Assembly (NCBI GenBank): GCA_041666265.1
Contig: JBAYHH010000001.1
Span: forward strand, 72,056-136,055
Direction: 5' to 3'
Length of the DNA stretch: 64,000 nt
From: Candidatus Magasanikiibacteriota bacterium
GTDB taxonomy: Bacteria; Patescibacteriota; Patescibacteriia; Magasanikbacterales; GWA2-37-8
This document shows positions 7,052-23,543 of the stretch, piece after piece. The notes beneath the pieces are model-generated. The model was given only the letters and a program-made list of their open reading frames with translations. It was not told the DNA's origin and did no database searches. The first letter of the stretch is position 1. Every line of letters begins with the position of its first letter. Made by a program: the position numbers and the translations under genes.

Positions 7052-8059
7052 ATGTTTATCAAAAAAATCGGCATCGATCTCGGCTCCAACAATGTTTTGG
7101 TTTATGTTTCCAAAAAAGGAATCGTAGTAAACGAACCGAGCGTCGTGGCTTTGTCCAAGGGCGACGGCAAGGTGCTTGCGGTCGGACTGGAGGCCAAAGA
7201 TATGATCGGGCGCACACCCGATACCATTAGCGCGCAGCAACCGGTCAAAGAAGGAGTGATCGCGAATTATCATATTACCGAAGCAATGTTGCGCTATTTT
7301 GTGAACAAAGCTTTGGGTGGGATGCGTTTGTTTCGGCCGGAAGTGATGATTGCGGTGCCGGCCGGCATTACTTCTACCGAACGCCGAGCCGTGATCGACG
7401 CCACTATCGCCGCGGGCGCGCGCGCCGCTTATATTATCAAGCAACCGATTGTGGCCGCCATTGGAGCGGATATTCCGATTGGCGCCGCGGCCGGTCATAT
7501 GGTCATCGATATTGGCGCCGGCAAGGCCGAAATCGCCGTTATTTCATTGGGTGGCATCGTGACCTGGGGTTCGGTGCGCATCGGCGGCAATAAATTCGAC
7601 AGCTCAATCGTAGATTATGTCCGTCATAAATATAATATGGCTATCGGTGAACACAGTGCCGAAGAGATTAAAATTCAGGTGGGATCGGCAATGTTTATGG
7701 ACAAGCCGATTTCCGTTGAGACCAAGGGTCGCGATATGATTGCCGGTTTGCCTCGTATTATTACCGTTAATTCTGACGATATCACCGAGGCTATTCAGCA
7801 TGATTTGGACCTGCTCACAGACGCTATTAAAGATGTTTTACACAAAACTCCGCCCGAGCTTTCCGCTGATATTATGGACAAGGGCATTATTTTGACCGGT
7901 GGTTCGGCGCAATTGCGTAATATGAGCGCGCTGATCGCGCAGTCCACCGGCGTGCCGACTTATGTGGCCGAAGAGCCCAGCCTATGTGTGGCAAAGGGGA
8001 CGGGCATTGCTCTGGAAAATCTGGAAAATTACAAGCGCAGTATCATGGCTACCAAATAA
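7052..8059 (+). CDS. mreB: rod shape-determining actin homologue MreB
   Basis: IGIDLGSNNVLVYV phosphate-1 motif, DIGAGKAEIAV phosphate-2, LTGGSAQLRN adenosine motif; 335 aa. Confidence 0.9.
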   Translation: MFIKKIGIDLGSNNVLVYVSKKGIVVNEPSVVALSKGDGKVLAVGLEAKDMIGRTPDTISAQQPVKEGVIANYHITEAMLRYFVNKALGGMRLFRPEVMIAVPAGITSTERRAVIDATIAAGARAAYIIKQPIVAAIGADIPIGAAAGHMVIDIGAGKAEIAVISLGGIVTWGSVRIGGNKFDSSIVDYVRHKYNMAIGEHSAEEIKIQVGSAMFMDKPISVETKGRDMIAGLPRIITVNSDDITEAIQHDLDLLTDAIKDVLHKTPPELSADIMDKGIILTGGSAQLRNMSALIAQSTGVPTYVAEEPSLCVAKGTGIALENLENYKRSIMATK

Positions 8060-10167: not shown

Positions 10168-10719
10168 ATGTTGAACATTAATGATTTCAAGAGCGACTTC
10201 GCCAAAGTGATCGACTTTTTGAAGCAGGATATTTCGGGTTTGCGCACCGGGCGGGCATCGTCGGCACTAGTGGAGGGGATTTTGGTTGAGGCTTATGGCA
10301 CACGCCAGCCGCTCAAGGCGGTGGCCTCGATTGTAGTCCAAGACGCCAAGACTTTGGTTTTGGAGCCGTGGGATAAAACTGTTTTGGCCTCCGTGGAAAA
10401 AAGTATTCGCGAATCCGGCATCGGCATCAACCCCAATAACGATGGACGCATTATTCGTCTGTGTTTGCCCGAGCTCACCGCCGATCGCCGTAGCGAGCTC
10501 ATCAAAGTTTTGCATCAAAAACTCGAATCCGCGCGCGTGTCGGTGCGCAAGGTGCGCGAAGAGGCGCGCGAGATGGTAATCATGGAAGAAAAAGAGAAAT
10601 CCATCGGCGAAGACGAGAAATTTAAATTACTCGATGAGCTGGAAAAAATGGTAAAAGATTTTAACGATCAAATCAAATCCGTAGGCGAGAAGAAAGAGGA
10701 GGAAATCACTACAGTGTAA
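10168..10719 (+). CDS. frr: ribosome recycling factor
   Basis: 183 aa, full-length similarity to Frr (SGLRTGRASSALVEGILVEAYG..., RIIRLCLPELTADRR...). Confidence 0.9.
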   Translation: MLNINDFKSDFAKVIDFLKQDISGLRTGRASSALVEGILVEAYGTRQPLKAVASIVVQDAKTLVLEPWDKTVLASVEKSIRESGIGINPNNDGRIIRLCLPELTADRRSELIKVLHQKLESARVSVRKVREEAREMVIMEEKEKSIGEDEKFKLLDELEKMVKDFNDQIKSVGEKKEEEITTV

Positions 10720-15654: not shown

Positions 15655-16227
15655 ATGTTATCAAAAACCTACATTCAAAAAATCAAAAAAGAGTATCTCG
15701 ATTACGCGGAAAAACGCCGTGATGTGATTAAATTTTCGGGTGACGCGCTCCATTGCGCCAAGCGCGCGATTTTTGCCATGCACCGCCGCGAGACCGATGA
15801 TGCCGGGTCGCGTTTGGCCGAGGCCGAAAAAATCCTTAAACAATTAAATCAAGATTTTTCCGGACAAAATGAATTGTTTGACGAGGGTTCGTATCGCGCC
15901 GCTCTCGAGGAATATGTCGAAGCGAAATTATTTTGTGAATTTGTCATGACCGGAAAAATGAGCGAAATTGACGCCATGCCGGTCGATAGCGATGTTTTTT
16001 TGGCCGGGCTATGCGATGTGCCGGGAGAGCTTTGTCGCTATGCGGTCAATAGCGCCACCAATCGTCAGTTTGACACTGTGGCCAAATGCAAAACTGCCGC
16101 CGAAGAAATTATCGGCGAGCTAATGGAGTTTGATTTGACATCCTATCTGCGCAATAAATTTGATCAAGCCAAAGGCGCGCTTAATAAAATCGAGCAGATC
16201 GTTTACGAAGTGAGTTTGAAAAAGTAG
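15655..16227 (+). CDS. translin-family protein (putative nucleic-acid-binding, alpha-helical)
   Basis: C-terminal FLAGLCDVPGELCRYAV...IIGELMEF resembles the translin/TRAX signature (YLxGLxDLTGELMR). Assigned from memory of the family, not from a search. Confidence 0.45.
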   Translation: MLSKTYIQKIKKEYLDYAEKRRDVIKFSGDALHCAKRAIFAMHRRETDDAGSRLAEAEKILKQLNQDFSGQNELFDEGSYRAALEEYVEAKLFCEFVMTGKMSEIDAMPVDSDVFLAGLCDVPGELCRYAVNSATNRQFDTVAKCKTAAEEIIGELMEFDLTSYLRNKFDQAKGALNKIEQIVYEVSLKK

Positions 16228-17994: not shown

Positions 17995-19017
17995 ATGGAT
18001 AATCAAATGGATAGCAAGGTTTCGAAAAATGTAAAGTTATTTTTGTTTGGGTTTGCCGGATTGCTGATCACGGCGCTCGTGCTTGTTGTCGGTGTATCGG
18101 CATATCGCGTTTATCATGCGGCCGCGAGCGACCGTTTTACGGTGACCGTCGCCAAGGCATTGCGTTTTCCGGCGTTTAAAGTGGGTGATAAAACTGTTTT
18201 ATACTCCGATTATGTCGAGGATTTGGCCGCTATTCATGTGATGCGCGATTTTGACAAAAATAATGGCGGACAAGGAGCGAGTCTGACCGAGGAACAAATG
18301 TCTGACCAAGTGCTTTGGCGTCTCGCCAACAATGTTTTGATCAAGCAGGCCGCTTTGCAAAATAAAGTAACGGTCGAAGATAAAGATATTGAAGCGATTA
18401 AGAGCCAAGTGCTTCAGCAATTTAAAACAACCGCCGAAGCCGAAACCGAACTTAAACGCCGTTATGGCTGGGATATGGATACTTATGACAAAAAAGTGAT
18501 TCGACCGTATGTTTTGCAAAATAAATTATCCGAAGCGATCGGCACTAATAATCAAGCGCGCGAAATGATGCGTGCCAAGGCGCAAGTGGTTCTCGATGAA
18601 ATCAAAAAAGGAGCGGATTTTGCCACCGAAGCGAAAAAATACGGTAGTGACGGCACCAAAGAAAATGGCGGTGACCTTGGTTGGTTTGGCCGAGGTGATA
18701 TGGTGCCGCAGTTTGAGGAAGCGGCGTTTGCTTTGAAAAAAGGCGAGCTGTCGCCGGAATTGGTAGAGACATCGTATGGTTATCATATCATCAAGCTCGT
18801 CGATACGCGCACTGAAAAAACCAAAGACGAGAAAGGTAAATCAGTGGACACCCCTCAAGTGCGCGCGAGTCACATTTTATTTCCTTTTCCGACCCTGACG
18901 ACTTATCTTGACGAGATTGTCAACAAAGCAAATTTTCATTTGTATCTCAATGTGCACAATCCGTTTGCGGAGTTAAAGAAACAAAAAGCCGCCGCTGCCA
19001 GCTCAACCAATCAATAA
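17995..19017 (+). CDS. parvulin-type peptidyl-prolyl isomerase (PrsA/SurA-like), membrane-anchored
   Basis: N-terminal TM; parvulin rotamase motifs RASHILF...GGDLGWFGRGDMVPQFEEAAF...YGYHIIKL. Confidence 0.75.
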   Translation: MDNQMDSKVSKNVKLFLFGFAGLLITALVLVVGVSAYRVYHAAASDRFTVTVAKALRFPAFKVGDKTVLYSDYVEDLAAIHVMRDFDKNNGGQGASLTEEQMSDQVLWRLANNVLIKQAALQNKVTVEDKDIEAIKSQVLQQFKTTAEAETELKRRYGWDMDTYDKKVIRPYVLQNKLSEAIGTNNQAREMMRAKAQVVLDEIKKGADFATEAKKYGSDGTKENGGDLGWFGRGDMVPQFEEAAFALKKGELSPELVETSYGYHIIKLVDTRTEKTKDEKGKSVDTPQVRASHILFPFPTLTTYLDEIVNKANFHLYLNVHNPFAELKKQKAAAASSTNQ

Positions 19018-19079
19018 TTATTACAGTTTTTAGGGTTTATAGGGGCTTCGACCACATCGAGGCCCCTTTGAAACCAAAT

Positions 19080-19150
19080 GCGGGATTAGTACATCGGTAG
19101 TATGCGTCCTTCCCAAGGATGAGAGGCCGGTTCGATTCCGGTATCCCGCT
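19080..19150 (+). tRNA. tRNA-Gly(CCC)
   Basis: GCGGGAT acceptor stem, anticodon stem CGTCC/GGATG with loop TTCCCAA (CCC), T-arm GCCGG-TTCGATT-CCGGT; CCA not encoded. Confidence 0.85.
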
Positions 19151-19187
19151 CGATTCGGTAAACGACGGAATGGCTAAAATTTGGTAA

Positions 19188-19230
19188 AATATACCCATAT
19201 TGTGGACACCTGTGGATAAGCGGGTATAGA
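19188..19230 (+). promoter_or_regulatory. putative controller-protein operator: inverted repeat ATATACCC...GGGTATAG flanking direct repeats TGTGGACA / TGTGGATAA
   Basis: seen directly ~30-70 nt upstream of the XRE gene start (19259). TGTGGATAAG recurs at 22523 and 22719. Confidence 0.45.
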
Positions 19231-19258
19231 TATTCCAATATCACTATTATTATATCAC

Positions 19259-19468
19259 ATGGCAAATAAACTTCCAAATATCGCCAGAAACATTAAGAAG
19301 TTGCGAAAAGAAAAAGGACTCTCGCAAGATCGTCTTTCAAAAATGGCGGATATAGCCCATCCGACCATTATTAAAATCGAATCCGGCGCAATCCAAAGCC
19401 CGACGGTTGAAACCGCGCAACGAATCGCGCGTGCGTTGGGTGTTGGAATTGATGACTTAATGAAATAA
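19259..19468 (+). CDS. XRE/Cro-type HTH protein, probable controller (C) protein of the downstream restriction-modification module
   Basis: 69 aa; LRKEKGLSQDRLSKMADIAHPTIIKIESG classic HTH_3; sits directly upstream of the MTase-REase pair. Confidence 0.7.
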   Translation: MANKLPNIARNIKKLRKEKGLSQDRLSKMADIAHPTIIKIESGAIQSPTVETAQRIARALGVGIDDLMK

Positions 19469-19475
19469 TTTTTAT

Positions 19476-21251
19476 ATGGCGAAATTAAAAGACACTCCAA
19501 AATTTGATCGACCACGAGAAAAATATATTGAAAAAGGTCCTGACGCGCTAACCGATAGCGAACTTTTGGCGATTTTACTTGGCAATGGCACAAAAGGCAT
19601 GAATGTAAAAGTCGTTGCGCAAAAAATTATAAAAAAATTTGGAACCAATCTGATAAATGTGTCGGTTGACGAACTGAAAGAAATTAAAGGAATTGGGCAA
19701 GCAAAGGCATTACAAATTGTTTCGGTGATTGCGTTGGCGAAACGACTGTTTGATAAGCAAAATGCGCCGGACAATTTAGTTTTATCTGCGCAAGACGCGG
19801 TAAAATTAGTGATAGAATTGAAAGATAAAAAACAAGAACACCTCGTTTGTTTGTATCTTAATGCTCGCAATGCCTTAATTAAAAAGGAAATTGTTTCCAT
19901 TGGAACGCTGGACAAAAGCATTGTTCATCCGCGTGATATTTTTGCATTGGGTTTAGAGTTGCATGCGGCCGGTGTTATTCTCATACACAATCATCCGTCC
20001 GGGGATGTTAGACCAAGCGAGCAGGATAAGCAAGTTGTCAAAAGAATTATTGAAGCTGGGCAGTTAATGGGTGTTAACGTCGTAGATTTTCTCATAGTGG
20101 CCAAGAATGCCACGCATAGCGTGTTGGGTGAAACCAGTAACACCAAGTTAGCCGACATCGAATATGTGGCCGAAGGATTGCAAGCGTCGTTGTTTAGTTT
20201 GCTAACGGAAACAAAGCAGGTTTATTTTTATGGAAACAATTTGATTGATACTTCGCCGACCAGCAGTAAAAGTTTTCGTTTCATTGATTTGTTTGCCGGC
20301 ATTGGCGGTATACGAATCGCTTTTGAACGCAATGGCGGTCAATGTGTTTTCACATCTGAATTTGATGAACCGTGCCAAGTAATGTATGAGGCAAATTTTG
20401 GAGATAAACCACATGGAGATATCACGAAAATTTCTGCCGATGAAATACCGGATCACGATATTTTAACTGGCGGTTTTCCCTGCCAAGCATTTAGTATAAT
20501 TGGAAAGAAACGTGGATTTGCGGATACTCGCGGCACTTTATTTTTTGATGTTGAAAGAATTTTAAAGGTGAAACAACCAAAAGCTTTTCTTCTGGAGAAT
20601 GTAAAACAGTTAACATCTCATGACGGGGGGCGCACATTTAAGATAATTATAGAATCTTTAAAAAATCTAGGGTATTATGTCCATTACAAAGTGCTTAACG
20701 GTCTTGACTTTGGTGTGCCACAAAGACGACAAAGGATAATGATAGTTGGTTTCAAAGAGAATTATCCTTTTGAATTTCCGAAGAGCGGATCGGATAACAA
20801 AACATTAGCCGATATTTTGGAACCGGACGGCAAAATTGATAAAAAACATTATCTAAGCGACAGTTTTCGGAAAAAATTGCAAGAAAGATTAAAAGAACAG
20901 GGCAAAAAGCCTGCACCCCAACCATCTGTTTGGCATGAGAATAAAGGTGGCAATATCGGGATGCACCCTTACTCGTGCGCGTTGAGAGCCAATGGATCTT
21001 ATAATTATTTGACAGTGAACGGAGAGCGACGACTTACACCAAGAGAAATGTTGCGTTTGCAAGGATTCCCAGATACTTTTAGAGTTGTTGTTCCGGATAC
21101 ACAAGTGAGAAAACAAGCGGGCAATAGTGTGGTTATTCCAAAAATTCAAGCAGTCGCGCGCGCTATGGTGGAAGCAATGAAACAGCCAGCAAGGGACGAA
21201 TCACATAAAGTTGGCTCATTAATTAATAAATCTGAAATAATTTATGCCTAA
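19476..21251 (+). CDS. fusion protein: N-terminal RadC (HhH + JAB/MPN, UPF0758) domain joined to a C-terminal DNA (cytosine-5)-methyltransferase
   Basis: aa 1-225: DSELLAILLGNG...GIGQAKALQI (HhH) and HNHPSGDVRPSEQD (JAMM). aa ~260-591: m5C-MTase motif I DLFAGIGG, motif IV GFPCQAFS, motif VI LLENVKQL, motif X QAGNSV. Confidence 0.8.
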   Translation: MAKLKDTPKFDRPREKYIEKGPDALTDSELLAILLGNGTKGMNVKVVAQKIIKKFGTNLINVSVDELKEIKGIGQAKALQIVSVIALAKRLFDKQNAPDNLVLSAQDAVKLVIELKDKKQEHLVCLYLNARNALIKKEIVSIGTLDKSIVHPRDIFALGLELHAAGVILIHNHPSGDVRPSEQDKQVVKRIIEAGQLMGVNVVDFLIVAKNATHSVLGETSNTKLADIEYVAEGLQASLFSLLTETKQVYFYGNNLIDTSPTSSKSFRFIDLFAGIGGIRIAFERNGGQCVFTSEFDEPCQVMYEANFGDKPHGDITKISADEIPDHDILTGGFPCQAFSIIGKKRGFADTRGTLFFDVERILKVKQPKAFLLENVKQLTSHDGGRTFKIIIESLKNLGYYVHYKVLNGLDFGVPQRRQRIMIVGFKENYPFEFPKSGSDNKTLADILEPDGKIDKKHYLSDSFRKKLQERLKEQGKKPAPQPSVWHENKGGNIGMHPYSCALRANGSYNYLTVNGERRLTPREMLRLQGFPDTFRVVVPDTQVRKQAGNSVVIPKIQAVARAMVEAMKQPARDESHKVGSLINKSEIIYA

Positions 21252-22302
21252 CATTAGAATGTCAAAAGAGGCGATAGATACAATTATCCGCAAGTCGCGC
21301 GTCCATTTGTATAAGCCAATCCAAATTGCCGAATTACTATATCATCACAGAATAGATAAAAAACGATGGGACCTGCTTGATCTGGAATCGTATCGCAATG
21401 TATCAAAAAGATGGCGCGACGAAGTGTCCAATCGTTTGGTTGGCAGAATTTGCACATCAAGTCAAAAATTTCAAGATAATATTTTTGATACAAACGCAAT
21501 GCCGCCCAAGTTGCTGCGCGATTTAGGTCTTTTCAATAAGCGACGCAATGGGTTCGTAGAAGCGTATATTTATAATGCCTTAAATGAAAGACTGTCATCG
21601 GTGCATGATGTAAACACTTACATTCACAAATCAACAGCGGTGAGTTTTGATTTAAAAAAGATAGTCGCTTTGTTTGAGTTGAGCCCGGGATTAAAAAGAA
21701 GTGTGGACAAAATTTATGAAATTCTTGTATATGCGTTATTTTCTACTATCGTAAGAGCTCTACGCGCCCAAATAACACTTGAAATTTTGAACGAAGACAA
21801 GCAGCTGCTTAAAGATTTTGAGTCCTTTATTAAAATGGTGATGGGTATTGATGCCAAGAATACAAAGATAATATTGCCTGCAGCTTTATATAGAGCCGGT
21901 GTCGCCAATGCCGCAGATAGAGGGTTGGATATGTGGGCAAATTTCGGTCTGGCTATTCAAGTTAAACATTTAACACTTACGCCGGAATTAATGGAGGATG
22001 TGGCGAATGAAATAGCGGCGGATAGAATGGTTGTGGTTTGTATAGATTCCGAGAAAGAGGCCATAAATAATTTATTATCGCAAGTTGGTTGGGGAGAAAA
22101 AATCCATGGGATTATCACCATTGATGATCTGGATCAATGGTATAAAATTTGTCTTAGCGATAAGTATAGAAGTAATTTAGGTAAAAATTTATTGAAGGAT
22201 GTTGAAAGAGAGTTTGGTCTGGAATTCCCATCAAATTCTGAATTGATTCCATTTATAAACGAACGCGGATACGCGAAATTTAAGACGGATTTTAAATGGT
22301 AA
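21244..22302 (+). CDS. putative type II restriction endonuclease (unknown specificity), translationally coupled to the MTase
   Basis: 8-nt overlap with the MTase gene; AT-rich (~38% GC, estimated by eye); 352 aa with no similarity to housekeeping families. Assignment is by gene context. Confidence 0.45.
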   Translation: MPNIRMSKEAIDTIIRKSRVHLYKPIQIAELLYHHRIDKKRWDLLDLESYRNVSKRWRDEVSNRLVGRICTSSQKFQDNIFDTNAMPPKLLRDLGLFNKRRNGFVEAYIYNALNERLSSVHDVNTYIHKSTAVSFDLKKIVALFELSPGLKRSVDKIYEILVYALFSTIVRALRAQITLEILNEDKQLLKDFESFIKMVMGIDAKNTKIILPAALYRAGVANAADRGLDMWANFGLAIQVKHLTLTPELMEDVANEIAADRMVVVCIDSEKEAINNLLSQVGWGEKIHGIITIDDLDQWYKICLSDKYRSNLGKNLLKDVEREFGLEFPSNSELIPFINERGYAKFKTDFKW

Positions 22303-22446
22303 AGTATAAATTGTCAAACACATTGATGATGAATGGTTGTTTAAATAAAAAACAACCCCTTGCGGGGATGTTTCCAACCTTGTTTCCTAGACTGGTGACC
22401 CAGCCACGCCACCATCCGGTGACAGTTCGGAGAACAGGTTTTTGTA

Positions 22447-23301
22447 ATGCTATTATATACTGCAAACAAGCACTTGTCAATAGAAAATTTTGATATTTTA
22501 TCTAATATTAGCCAAAAGGGGCTGTGGATAAGTAATAATATGTCCGAATATTACACCCCTCAACGCACTAAAAATTTATACGACCCAAAATCACTGGACT
22601 CTTTTAAACTCTCGCGTTCCAAGATAGATTTGTTTTTAGAGTGTCCGCGTTGTTTTTATTTAGACCGTCGTTTAGGTGTGGGCCGACCGCCCGGATTTCC
22701 ATTTGCACTTAATTCGGCTGTGGATAAGTTGCTCAAGAAGGAATTTGATATCCACCGTGCTAAAAAACAGGCGCATCCATTGATAACCCACTACGGCGTT
22801 GACGCAGTGCCAATCGCGCACAAAGATTTGGATATCTGGCGTGAAAATTTTAAAGGCATACAATATTTACACGAGCCAACCAATTTGGTTATCACCGGCG
22901 CTATTGATGATCTCTGGCAAAATTCAAAAGGGGAGTATATTGTGGTGGATTATAAGTCCACATCCAAGGACGAAGATATTACCGAGCTTAATAAAGATTG
23001 GCAAGGCGGCTATAAGCGCCAAATGGAGGTGTACCAGTGGCTATTACGCCGGAATGGATATAAAGTGTCTAAGACTGGGTATTTTGTTTATTGCAATGGC
23101 CAAACCGACCGCAAGGCGTTTGATGCTAAGTTGGAATTTGATATCACTTTAATTGCCTACAAGGGCGATGATTCTTGGGTGGATAAAGCTGTTATTGGCG
23201 CGCATAAGTGTTTGAATGGCAATAAAATTCCAAAATCCGGCGCGGATTGCGATTATTGTGCGTATGTACAGGCGGTAGAAAGTAAAACATTGTTGACTTA
23301 G
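22447..23301 (+). CDS. Cas4/RecB-like PD-(D/E)xK nuclease with predicted Fe-S cluster cysteines (start uncertain; alternative ATG at 22540)
   Basis: N-terminal CPRCFY; AIDDLW...YIVVDYKST (D...D/ExK); QMEVYQW (QxxxY); C-terminal C-x14-CDYC cysteine cluster. Confidence 0.65.
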   Translation: MLLYTANKHLSIENFDILSNISQKGLWISNNMSEYYTPQRTKNLYDPKSLDSFKLSRSKIDLFLECPRCFYLDRRLGVGRPPGFPFALNSAVDKLLKKEFDIHRAKKQAHPLITHYGVDAVPIAHKDLDIWRENFKGIQYLHEPTNLVITGAIDDLWQNSKGEYIVVDYKSTSKDEDITELNKDWQGGYKRQMEVYQWLLRRNGYKVSKTGYFVYCNGQTDRKAFDAKLEFDITLIAYKGDDSWVDKAVIGAHKCLNGNKIPKSGADCDYCAYVQAVESKTLLT

Positions 23302-23417: not shown

Positions 23418-23490
23418 GCCGCCTTAGCTCAGTTGGTAGAGCGACACATTCGTAACGTGTAGGTCTCGGGTTCGATTCCCGAAGGCGGCT
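23418..23490 (+). tRNA. tRNA-Thr(CGU)
   Basis: GCCGCCT acceptor, TAGCTCAGTTGGTAGAGC D-arm, anticodon loop TTCGTAA (CGU), T-arm TCGGG-TTCGATT-CCCGA. Confidence 0.8.
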
Positions 23491-23543
23491 CGATTTATAC
23501 ACAGCGCCATCTTGCCGATTGGCTTTTTTTGTTTTTGAATGTG

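Follow-up and report, generated by a model that had tools for sequence, protein, structure and literature searches.

A stand-alone Cas4-like nuclease with a two-plus-two cysteine layout downstream of a HaeII-type restriction operon in Candidatus Magasanikiibacteriota

We analyzed a predicted nuclease gene in a 64,000-nucleotide stretch of a Candidatus Magasanikiibacteriota genome (assembly GCA_041666265.1, contig JBAYHH010000001.1, positions 72,056 to 136,055; hereafter the window, to which all positions refer unless another locus is named). The gene lies downstream of a HaeII-type restriction-modification (RM) operon and encodes a small, stand-alone protein for which sequence and structural model show a RecB/Cas4 fold with intact active-site residues. 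Its relatives, found mostly in candidate phyla radiation (CPR) bacteria, share four cysteines in a two-plus-two arrangement, bear the sequence marks of very strong purifying selection and have a clear directional association, in the contigs compared, with RM and other defence genes. We tentatively favour the reading that the protein is an accessory of defence islands, a generic nuclease that would process or degrade the DNA ends left by neighbouring systems.

Family assignment, active site and cysteine layout

An intact, uninterrupted open reading frame (ORF) was called on the plus strand of the window from 22447 to 23301, and an earlier sequence-only reading of this DNA had left its start ambiguous between 22447 and 22540. 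The closest 120 homologues listed are 74-93% identical to the product, begin with MSEYY and are mostly 249-253 amino acids (aa) long, up to 262 aa, and in 90 other loci the similarity at the DNA level sets in at 22539/22540. We therefore settled on 22540 as the predicted start, which gives a product of 253 aa, and regard the 31-codon extension from 22447 as spurious. This extension is missing from all homologues and overlaps the promoter of a small RNA gene on the minus strand. Upstream of 22539, DNA similarity was found only in one locus, L008 of a Nomurabacteria metagenome-assembled genome (MAG), and there to the small RNA block.

The 22540 form matches the Pfam profile PDDEXK_1 (PF12705) with 60.7 bits against a threshold of 22 (E = 2.8e-16, residues 98-243), a domain that is also precomputed for its homologues. 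Cas4 profiles, in contrast, stay below threshold (PF01930, 17.0 against 22.7 bits; TIGR00372, 32.4 against 65 bits), and with the Cas4 models of PADLOC the protein scores just 30-32 bits. By these matches it is a PD-(D/E)xK enzyme of the RecB/Cas4 type that does not reach membership of the Cas4 family by score. The comparison of Cas4 with PDDEXK_1 profiles suggested in the sequence-only reading thus came out on the side of PDDEXK_1. The refuting outcome named in that reading, best hits to a housekeeping RecB/AddB fragment, was borne out in part: the best profile is the general, RecB/AddB-type one, but the family consists of full-length, stand-alone proteins.

Residue conservation was scored in 114 full-length representatives of 50%-identity clusters and in a separate alignment of 42 homologues reaching down to 36% identity. 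In the representatives, the RecB-type catalytic set is almost unbroken, with D123 at 100%, D137 (D or E) and K139 at 99%, and Q161 and Y165 at 96%; the RecB-nuclease motifs that had been read by eye (D...VVDYK...QMEVYQ) are accordingly present and 96-100% conserved. In the 42-homologue alignment C35, C38, K66, R73, W100, G120, D123, D124, K139, Y165, W213, P231, C237 and C240 are invariant, and S25, R26, D137 and Q161 nearly so.

All four of C35, C38, C237 and C240 are cysteines in 101 of the 114 representatives (89%), and a cysteine occurs at the positions of C224 and C185 in 56 and 30%, respectively. None of the 42 aligned sequences has a cysteine six residues past C240. Because four cysteines are conserved together and no x5-C follows C240, the signature is CxxC...CxxC (two plus two) and not the C...CxxCx5C (one plus three) pattern that is canonical for Cas4, AddB, Dna2, EXO5 and ACE1 as quoted in PMC12094033. 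The proposal of a Cas4/AddB-type Fe-S (iron-sulfur) pattern therefore did not survive in that form: the protein matches three of the four canonical ligand positions, lacks the x5-C and has a second N-terminal cysteine instead. The N-terminal and C-terminal CxxC pairs of that proposal were borne out, whereas its additional C-terminal cysteine is the poorly conserved C224. By analogy, the four cysteines may bind a metal, which could be Fe-S or zinc.

A confident AlphaFold2 model of the nuclease has a predicted local distance difference test score (pLDDT) of 94.5 and a predicted template modeling (pTM) score of 0.90. In the model, C35 and C38 sit at the kink between helices 26-34 and 36-45, while C237 and C240 open the last helix (238-250). 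The best Foldseek matches in the PDB are chain A of AdnAB (7sjr_A, 6ppr_A and 9np6_A), with E values of about 2e-5 and query-normalized TM scores of 0.45-0.51, the AdnA nuclease domain being the closest (E = 1.8e-5, TM 0.51). Further matches were a DinG chain, MGME1, the Cas4 protein Pcal_0546, RecE, type I-C Cas4, lambda exonuclease, SSO0001, EXO5, AddB (3u44_B, E = 0.0098) and ACE1. A single-sequence search of the PDB returned no chain below E = 0.36; with a profile of the family, weak alignments were obtained between the core motifs and SSO0001 (E = 0.005) and between the C-terminal C-x-x-C-x-Y and ACE1.

The likeness to Cas4 (SSO0001, 4ic1; Pcal_0546, 4r5q; type I-C, 8d3l) extends from the fold to the aligned motifs G-x-x-D, (D/E)xK and QxxxY, to an N-terminal cysteine in an 'S-R-S...C-P-R' helix and to a C-terminal CxxC-x-Y. 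Unlike Cas4, the protein falls below both family thresholds, with Foldseek TM scores of 0.35-0.47, has C38 in place of the third C-terminal cysteine and carries an extra N-terminal helical region with the invariant K66, R73 and W100. The C-terminal 'CDYCAY' aligns with 'CRYCAF' of ACE1, an Argonaute-associated enzyme of the Cas4 family (9iab/9iac), but in ACE1 and AddB the [4Fe-4S] cluster is held by a single N-terminal cysteine and three C-terminal ones (PMC12094033), and no Argonaute gene lies near the nuclease gene. Unlike AddB and AdnAB, the nuclease is a single domain without a fused helicase; a helicase partner is not conserved either, since a PIF1-like helicase was found within 8 kb in 6 of 80 loci. 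Rare fusions do occur in the distant members P0123, P0149, P0151 and P0197, to NUDIX, to HD_4 (RelA/SpoT-type), to GYF plus TIR and to a DUF2779 Cas4-like domain. In contrast to CRISPR-associated Cas4, there is no cas1, cas2 or CRISPR array in the window. No tandem or spaced repeats and no Rfam CRISPR match were detected in it, and none of its 39 other ORFs of at least 150 aa matched a Cas model, so that the absence of CRISPR-cas noted in the sequence-only reading holds.

Neighbourhoods, spread and rate of evolution of the family

The genes around the nuclease were compared by all-against-all clustering of 1085 ORFs within 8 kb in 80 loci. The most recurrent families are a large serine recombinase, an ABC ATPase, Dcm, a small GIY-YIG protein and type III Mod, and HsdM, HsdR, a PIF1-like helicase, a glycosyltransferase and RmuC recur as well. 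Among the genes directly next to the nuclease are HsdR, GajA/OLD, HerA, Fic, AAA_21 and reverse transcriptases. In 20 of 77 loci (26%), type I, II or III RM genes were found upstream of the nuclease. The 28 scored RM components (7 Dcm, 5 type III Mod, 3 type III Res, 7 HsdM and 6 HsdR) all lie upstream, at gene positions -1 to -6, and 26 of them are co-oriented with the nuclease gene; none lies downstream. Independent loci show the same polarity, and L231 has a type I RM system upstream. The habitual position of the predicted nuclease, as the contigs show it, is in defence islands, typically as the distal co-oriented gene behind a type I, II or III RM system. At other loci it stands beside defence reverse transcriptases, TIR, HerA or Gabija-type genes.

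One order of genes with gaps of about 5 nucleotides (nt) recurs: type III Mod, Res, an AbiP2-like reverse transcriptase, the nuclease and a 432-aa TIR protein (PADLOC candidate PDC-S66). It was found at L082 (4137-12054), L083, L084, L086, L087, L088, L089 and L228, partially at L085 and as a variant at L230, and the Res protein of this island has a weak TnsA-like match at its N-terminus. Contigs with this order encode four distinct nucleases closely related to that of the window (P0005, P0006, P0012 and P0060), the variant with P0060 having a shorter reverse transcriptase and no TIR gene. Two of these homologues carry Taylorbacteria and Magasanikbacteria source names, and an AbiP2-linked homologue is 81% identical to the window protein. 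The island may represent a composite element of defence genes that is passed among CPR genomes; several of its copies are followed by a large serine recombinase. Such recombinases lie within 8 kb at 9 of the 80 loci and, in seven of eight loci scored, five to seven genes downstream of the nuclease. At L081, a nuclease 93% identical to the window protein is encoded 4-5 nt downstream of a UG13b reverse transcriptase gene.

Two models of mobility were considered. Integration linked to tRNA genes is not the rule, as tRNA genes are only scattered near the nuclease in 60 loci, although the variable region of the window does have tRNA flanks. Evidence for a mobile cassette with conserved cis elements was not found: no common motif was detected in the 75 nt upstream of 86 distinct loci. 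In the closest loci, DNA similarity ends at the ATG and 24-44 nt past the stop codon. A separate observation concerns one MAG (CAZVMH01) that carries two copies of the gene (L016 and L022), each encoding a protein 75% identical to that of the window, in different neighbourhoods, one behind HsdR and the other behind HsdM plus an EcoEI-type HsdR.

The family is large. A protein search over 5.8 billion sequences returned at least 8000 homologous clusters at 90% identity, and after clustering at 50% identity 325 clusters match the nuclease at E <= 1e-30. When each GTDB species was represented by a single genome, the search gave at least 591 matching stretches, mostly from CPR lineages (Magasanikbacteria, Buchananbacteria, Falkowbacteria, Nomurabacteria, Taylorbacteria, Yonathbacteria, WWE3, Peregrinibacteria and others). 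Outside the CPR, copies of about 70% identity were found on a Nitrospiraceae chromosome of 3.2 Mb and in MAGs that bear the names Scalindua, Ignavibacteria, Omnitrophota and Thermodesulfobacteriota.

CPR genomes commonly carry solo Cas4 genes, some of them beside RM genes (Hudaiberdiev et al., 2017, PMC5704561), and this published link to CPR bacteria and RM neighbourhoods was counted for the defence-island reading. Like the solo Cas4 and PF12705 proteins of that study, the nuclease is stand-alone, with RecB-type motifs, cysteines near both termini and no CRISPR-cas link, and its genes are over-represented in CPR bacteria with small genomes and found beside type III Mod/Res, Dcm and other defence genes. 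The study also describes Cas4-like domains of the PF12705 type that are fused to UvrD and encoded next to type III Mod/Res and Dcm; unlike this RM-linked group, the window nuclease has no helicase, and its cysteines are arranged two plus two. Solo Cas4-like nucleases in CPR bacteria and beside RM genes are thus already known, and what differs here is the variant of the putative metal site. We found no description of the two-plus-two cysteines, the K66/R73/W100 region, the degree of conservation or the polar placement behind three types of RM system, although an earlier one is possible.

The nuclease evolves slowly. In comparison with the closest copy, whose protein is 93% identical (dS 0.98), the ratio of nonsynonymous to synonymous substitution rates (dN/dS) is 0.037; for the next copy it is 0.07, and dS is saturated beyond. 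The guanine-plus-cytosine (GC) content of the gene follows that of its flanks (r = 0.82), with L004, L002, L021, L042 and L090 as outliers. Since dS is about 1 or saturated and the GC content tracks the flanks, the high identity of the proteins points to old divergence under very strong constraint, and a recent horizontal sweep was rejected as its general cause. By the identities observed, the nuclease is more conserved than MurE, FtsE and FtsX: at the 120th best match it is 78% identical against about 60% for MurE, and between the window and L021 the values are 72% for the nuclease, 64% for FtsE, 35% for FtsX and 21% for a PrsA-like protein.

These properties are what would be expected if the gene had a housekeeping function in DNA repair, recombination or the salvage of nucleotides. 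The nuclease would then be a core enzyme of CPR bacteria, whose small genomes may lack RecBCD or AddAB; it would resect or degrade DNA ends, such as those of broken chromosomes or imported DNA, and would have acquired its defence neighbours by flanking a hotspot of island insertion. We take this seriously as a possible explanation but doubt it. It accounts well for the low dN/dS (0.04-0.07) at saturated dS, for conservation above that of MurE, FtsE and FtsX of the same genomes, for the amelioration of gene GC to the host and for the very wide spread over CPR lineages. Some neighbours are plain (TypA, LepA, SerRS, RsuA and TspO), the NUDIX and HD fusions and a nearby PNP gene fit nucleotide metabolism, and solo Cas4 and Cas4-like genes have been reported to evolve like ordinary genes, solo cas4 mostly vertically and under median selection pressure (PMC5704561). 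Against it, synteny is absent even for L081, the locus with the 93% identical nuclease, where the upstream gene differs and similarity stops at the ORF borders. At L021 the order is PrsA, tRNA-Thr, FtsE, FtsX and tRNA-Gln, with nothing inserted between PrsA and tRNA-Thr and the nuclease gene behind tRNA-Gln, hence on the opposite side of ftsEX from its place in the window. The genes downstream of the nuclease are as variable and island-like as those upstream (TIR, HNH, RmuC, PIF1, GIY-YIG and serine recombinases), and together with the shifted position at L021 and the two copies in one MAG they count against a core gene at the edge of a hotspot. The homologues of about 70% identity in Nitrospiraceae, Scalindua, Ignavibacteria and Omnitrophota suggest transfer.

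The restriction operon and the gap before the nuclease gene

The RM operon, the nuclease gene and the elements between them are listed in Table 1. The modification gene of the operon is, by its domain matches, the 591-aa fusion, in which UPF0758_N, HHH and RadC cover residues 5-216 and DNA_methylase residues 267-565 (2.1e-95); the endonuclease gene overlaps it by 8 nt. With a GC content of 37-41%, the operon lies 5-8 points under its flanks (45-48%), as would fit a recent acquisition; the value for the nuclease gene is 42.7%. The window does not avoid HaeII sites (RGCGCY), of which it has 94 against 66 +/- 8 expected. There are none in the 4.8 kb from 18078 to 22896, a segment that takes in the RM operon, the small RNA gene and the initial 357 nt of the nuclease gene.

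Table 1. Features of the nuclease locus in the window
Feature	Position	Strand	Description and evidence
tRNA-Gly(CCC)	19080-19151		Left bound of variable region; ARAGORN, Rfam
RadC-like JAB/C5 cytosine DNA methyltransferase fusion gene	19476..21251	+	591 aa; Pfam, NCBIfam dcm and RadC
HaeII-family type II restriction endonuclease gene	21244..22302	+	352 aa; RE_HaeII 4.1e-127; PADLOC REase_II 5e-120
DUF3800 gene 3' remnant	22310..22348	+	12 codons plus stop, IVKHIDDEWLFK then stop; begins right behind endonuclease stop
DUF3800-IX small RNA gene (Rfam RF02968)	22346..22445	-	About 100 nt; Rfam match 22372-22440
Small RNA terminator hairpin	22355-22369, U-run to about 22346	-	Terminator scan
Sigma-70-type promoter of small RNA	22452..22480	-	TTGACA, 17 nt, TATAAT; 12/12 consensus matches
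Spurious N-terminal ORF extension	22447..22539	+	31 codons, outside gene
Cas4-like PD-(D/E)xK nuclease coding sequence (predicted)	22540..23301	+	253 aa plus stop; PDDEXK_1 match, homologues, AlphaFold2 model
Catalytic codons of nuclease gene	D123 22906-22908, D137 22948-22950, K139 22954-22956, Q161 23020-23022, Y165 23032-23034	+	
Conserved cysteine codons of nuclease gene	C35 22642-22644, C38 22651-22653, C237 23248-23250, C240 23257-23259	+	
tRNA-Thr(CGU)	23418..23491	+	Right bound of variable region; ARAGORN, Rfam

The co-oriented endonuclease and nuclease genes are separated by 237 nt, which contain a small RNA gene on the opposite strand. It matches the DUF3800-IX family of Rfam with 53.4 bits against a gathering threshold of 36.8 (E = 1e-8, full model 1-67, every pair canonical), and the RNA of about 100 nt has a folding energy of -40.6 kcal/mol (z = -3.2). 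L008 has an almost identical copy upstream of its nuclease gene, in which one pair has undergone a compensatory change. Several DUF3800 motifs have been described as ending in a terminator (Weinberg et al., 2017, PMC5737381), and the RNA in the window resembles the published DUF3800-IX RNAs in scoring above the gathering threshold and in ending at a terminator. It differs from most DUF3800-IX loci in its partner. Among 80 loci with this RNA, obtained by a DNA-pattern scan of metagenome contigs, 55 have a DUF3800 gene that is convergent with the RNA and lies 14-57 nt from its 3' end, whereas the RNA in the window adjoins a DUF3800 remnant of 12 codons. The DUF3800 protein of L008 ends in ISKHIDNEWLFK followed by the stop; a tblastn search with this protein matched the window at 22259-22345 (E = 0.028) and revealed no further DUF3800 gene anywhere in it, and the DNA similarity between the window and L008 begins at 22315. 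The RNA is thus apparently an intact gene orphaned, as far as sequence can tell, from its protein partner.

A functional coupling of the nuclease with the DUF3800-IX RNA was rejected in favour of co-residence in islands, as 4 of the 80 RNA loci carry the nuclease near the RNA compared with the 55 that carry DUF3800. Several observations on such loci may be recorded here. In L171 (6772-8239), L146 (76-1804) and L152 (1497-2596), all of them DUF3800-IX RNA loci, the nuclease gene lies directly upstream of DUF3800 and co-oriented with it, with a gap of 27 nt in L171, and hence on the opposite side from the layout in the window and L008. Co-occurrence of the nuclease with the DUF3800-RNA module is more frequent than expected for two rare elements, and their order is not fixed. 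In L019 a DUF3800-IX RNA (10368-10478, minus strand) is found 1.7 kb downstream of the nuclease gene, between genes for a PIF1-like helicase and an NYN-domain protein, and this copy has no adjoining DUF3800 gene.

In L008 the order is type III Mod, Res, DUF3800, the opposite-strand RNA and the nuclease, which looks like the older arrangement when the two sequences are compared. Since the RM operon is separated from the nuclease gene by the truncated DUF3800 gene and by an antisense DUF3800-IX RNA gene that is intact, it is best read as a later replacement beside a pre-existing nuclease gene. The simplest history appears to be that a module of DUF3800 and RNA adjoined the nuclease gene and that an RM cassette of lower GC content later replaced most of DUF3800. 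So read, the locus is a clear example of the turnover of defence cassettes, in which DUF3800 was swapped for an RM operon and an orphan DUF3800-IX RNA was left behind.

A plus-strand hairpin in the gap lacks a U-tract. Because of the DUF3800 remnant and the opposite-strand RNA gene in the gap, co-transcription of the nuclease with the RM operon is hypothetical, and the nuclease gene is probably expressed alone or by read-through. The description of the gene as appended to an RM operon accordingly goes too far: the gene is co-oriented with the endonuclease gene, but the remnant and the independent small RNA gene stand between them. A perfect DnaA-box consensus (TTATCCACA, minus strand) was noted at 22514-22522, behind a short hairpin and 17-18 nt upstream of the nuclease ATG. 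It recurs in L008 (about 7207-7215) and is shared by these two loci only among 86 distinct upstream regions. A DnaA-box regulator was therefore discarded as a feature of the family; the box may reflect lineage-specific regulation or chance.

A specific role with this operon, in which the nuclease is co-transcribed with it and serves as a dedicated second effector that acts on HaeII cleavage products, had been raised in the sequence-only reading and now seems very unlikely. The orientation and proximity of the gene, the possibility of read-through past a hairpin without a plus-strand U-tract and the RM genes upstream of 26% of the family's loci agree with it. Yet the endonuclease is a singleton cluster among the 80 loci, where no other pairing of the nuclease with a HaeII-family enzyme was seen, and within the gap lie a DUF3800 remnant and, convergent, a small RNA gene that has a consensus promoter and a terminator of its own. 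Moreover, the GC content makes the operon look like the later arrival, L008 keeps the block of RNA and nuclease behind a type III RM system plus DUF3800, and the HaeII sites of the window are not avoided.

We rejected an origin as cargo or as a replication-recombination gene of a virus or integrative element, comparable to the Cas4-like or RecE-like exonucleases of phages, as scarcely credible: the protein does match phrog_31195 over almost its full length (3.1e-17) and large serine recombinases lie within 8 kb at some loci, but a scan with a single peptide pattern found just 15 relatives among the 2.9 million viral contigs of IMG/VR, no phage structural or replication genes stand beside the nuclease in any annotated context, its GC content is ameliorated to the host, and its neighbours in the window are tRNA and ftsEX genes.

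Elsewhere in the window, an ORF at 15655-16227 on the plus strand matches the Pfam family Translin (1.7e-20), which is unusual for a bacterium; NCBIfam weakly, and below cutoff, matches it to models named 'haloacid dehalogenase superfamily protein'.

A possible role in defence islands and its implications

For the reading as a defence-island accessory we counted the match in fold and family, the conservation of active site and cysteines, the purifying selection, the RM polarity, the downstream serine recombinases, the two copies in one MAG and the rare TIR, NUDIX and HD fusions. In such a role, one metal centre bound by the four cysteines would tie the N-terminal helices to the C-terminal helix, like the Fe-S staple of Cas4 and AddB. 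The nuclease would thread single-stranded DNA or a DNA end into its active site and degrade it, probably from 5' to 3' by analogy with Cas4, AddB and lambda exonuclease. Its substrates would be linear fragments produced by the neighbouring defence systems, and a part in nucleotide recycling is conceivable as well. An archaeal solo Cas4 has been shown to be a [4Fe-4S] DNase (PMC12501428), and ACE1 is a precedent for a small Cas4-family nuclease that acts as an accessory to another defence effector (PMC12094033).

Several points weigh against this reading. There is no single conserved partner gene, the commonest neighbour cluster being present at 9 of the 80 loci. By the cluster-based measure, about three quarters of the loci have no RM gene within 8 kb, so that the link between solo Cas4-like nucleases and RM systems expected in the sequence-only reading holds as an upstream association but is not obligate. 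The counts of RM genes and of their polarity come from loci that are not phylogenetically independent and were made with no matched control for the density of defence genes in CPR genomes, and the polarity could also arise from a core gene that flanks an insertion hotspot. Slow evolution and GC amelioration are more like those of a housekeeping gene than of a defence effector. In the window itself, a small RNA gene and a hairpin separate the RM operon from the nuclease gene, for which the promoter scan found no plus-strand promoter. The polarity of exonuclease cutting and the nature of the metal would follow from pure analogy.

The defence-island reading can be carried further, to a shared 'post-cleavage' module of CPR defence islands, although we think this extended form improbable. 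The family would then provide a helicase-less exonuclease with a two-plus-two cysteine staple that is recruited downstream by unrelated systems, namely RM systems of types I, II and III, AbiP2 and UG13b reverse transcriptases, TIR, HerA, Gabija and DUF3800 with its RNA. If this were true, the nuclease would destroy or recycle DNA ends and so fill the role of RecBCD or AddAB after restriction. CPR bacteria may lack these enzymes. CPR bacteria, or Patescibacteria, rarely carry CRISPR-Cas and depend heavily on restriction-modification.

If the nuclease proved to be a plain housekeeping gene, the present work would amount to an ordinary refinement of its annotation. The two-plus-two layout of its cysteines offers a natural test of how much of the 'iron staple' geometry of Cas4 and AddB is essential. 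As a putative defence-island accessory, a small protein that ranks with the most conserved of CPR bacteria and yet is encoded at the distal end of many different defence operons, the nuclease is a concrete, testable candidate for the way in which reduced CPR genomes finish off cut DNA, and it may salvage nucleotides in doing so.

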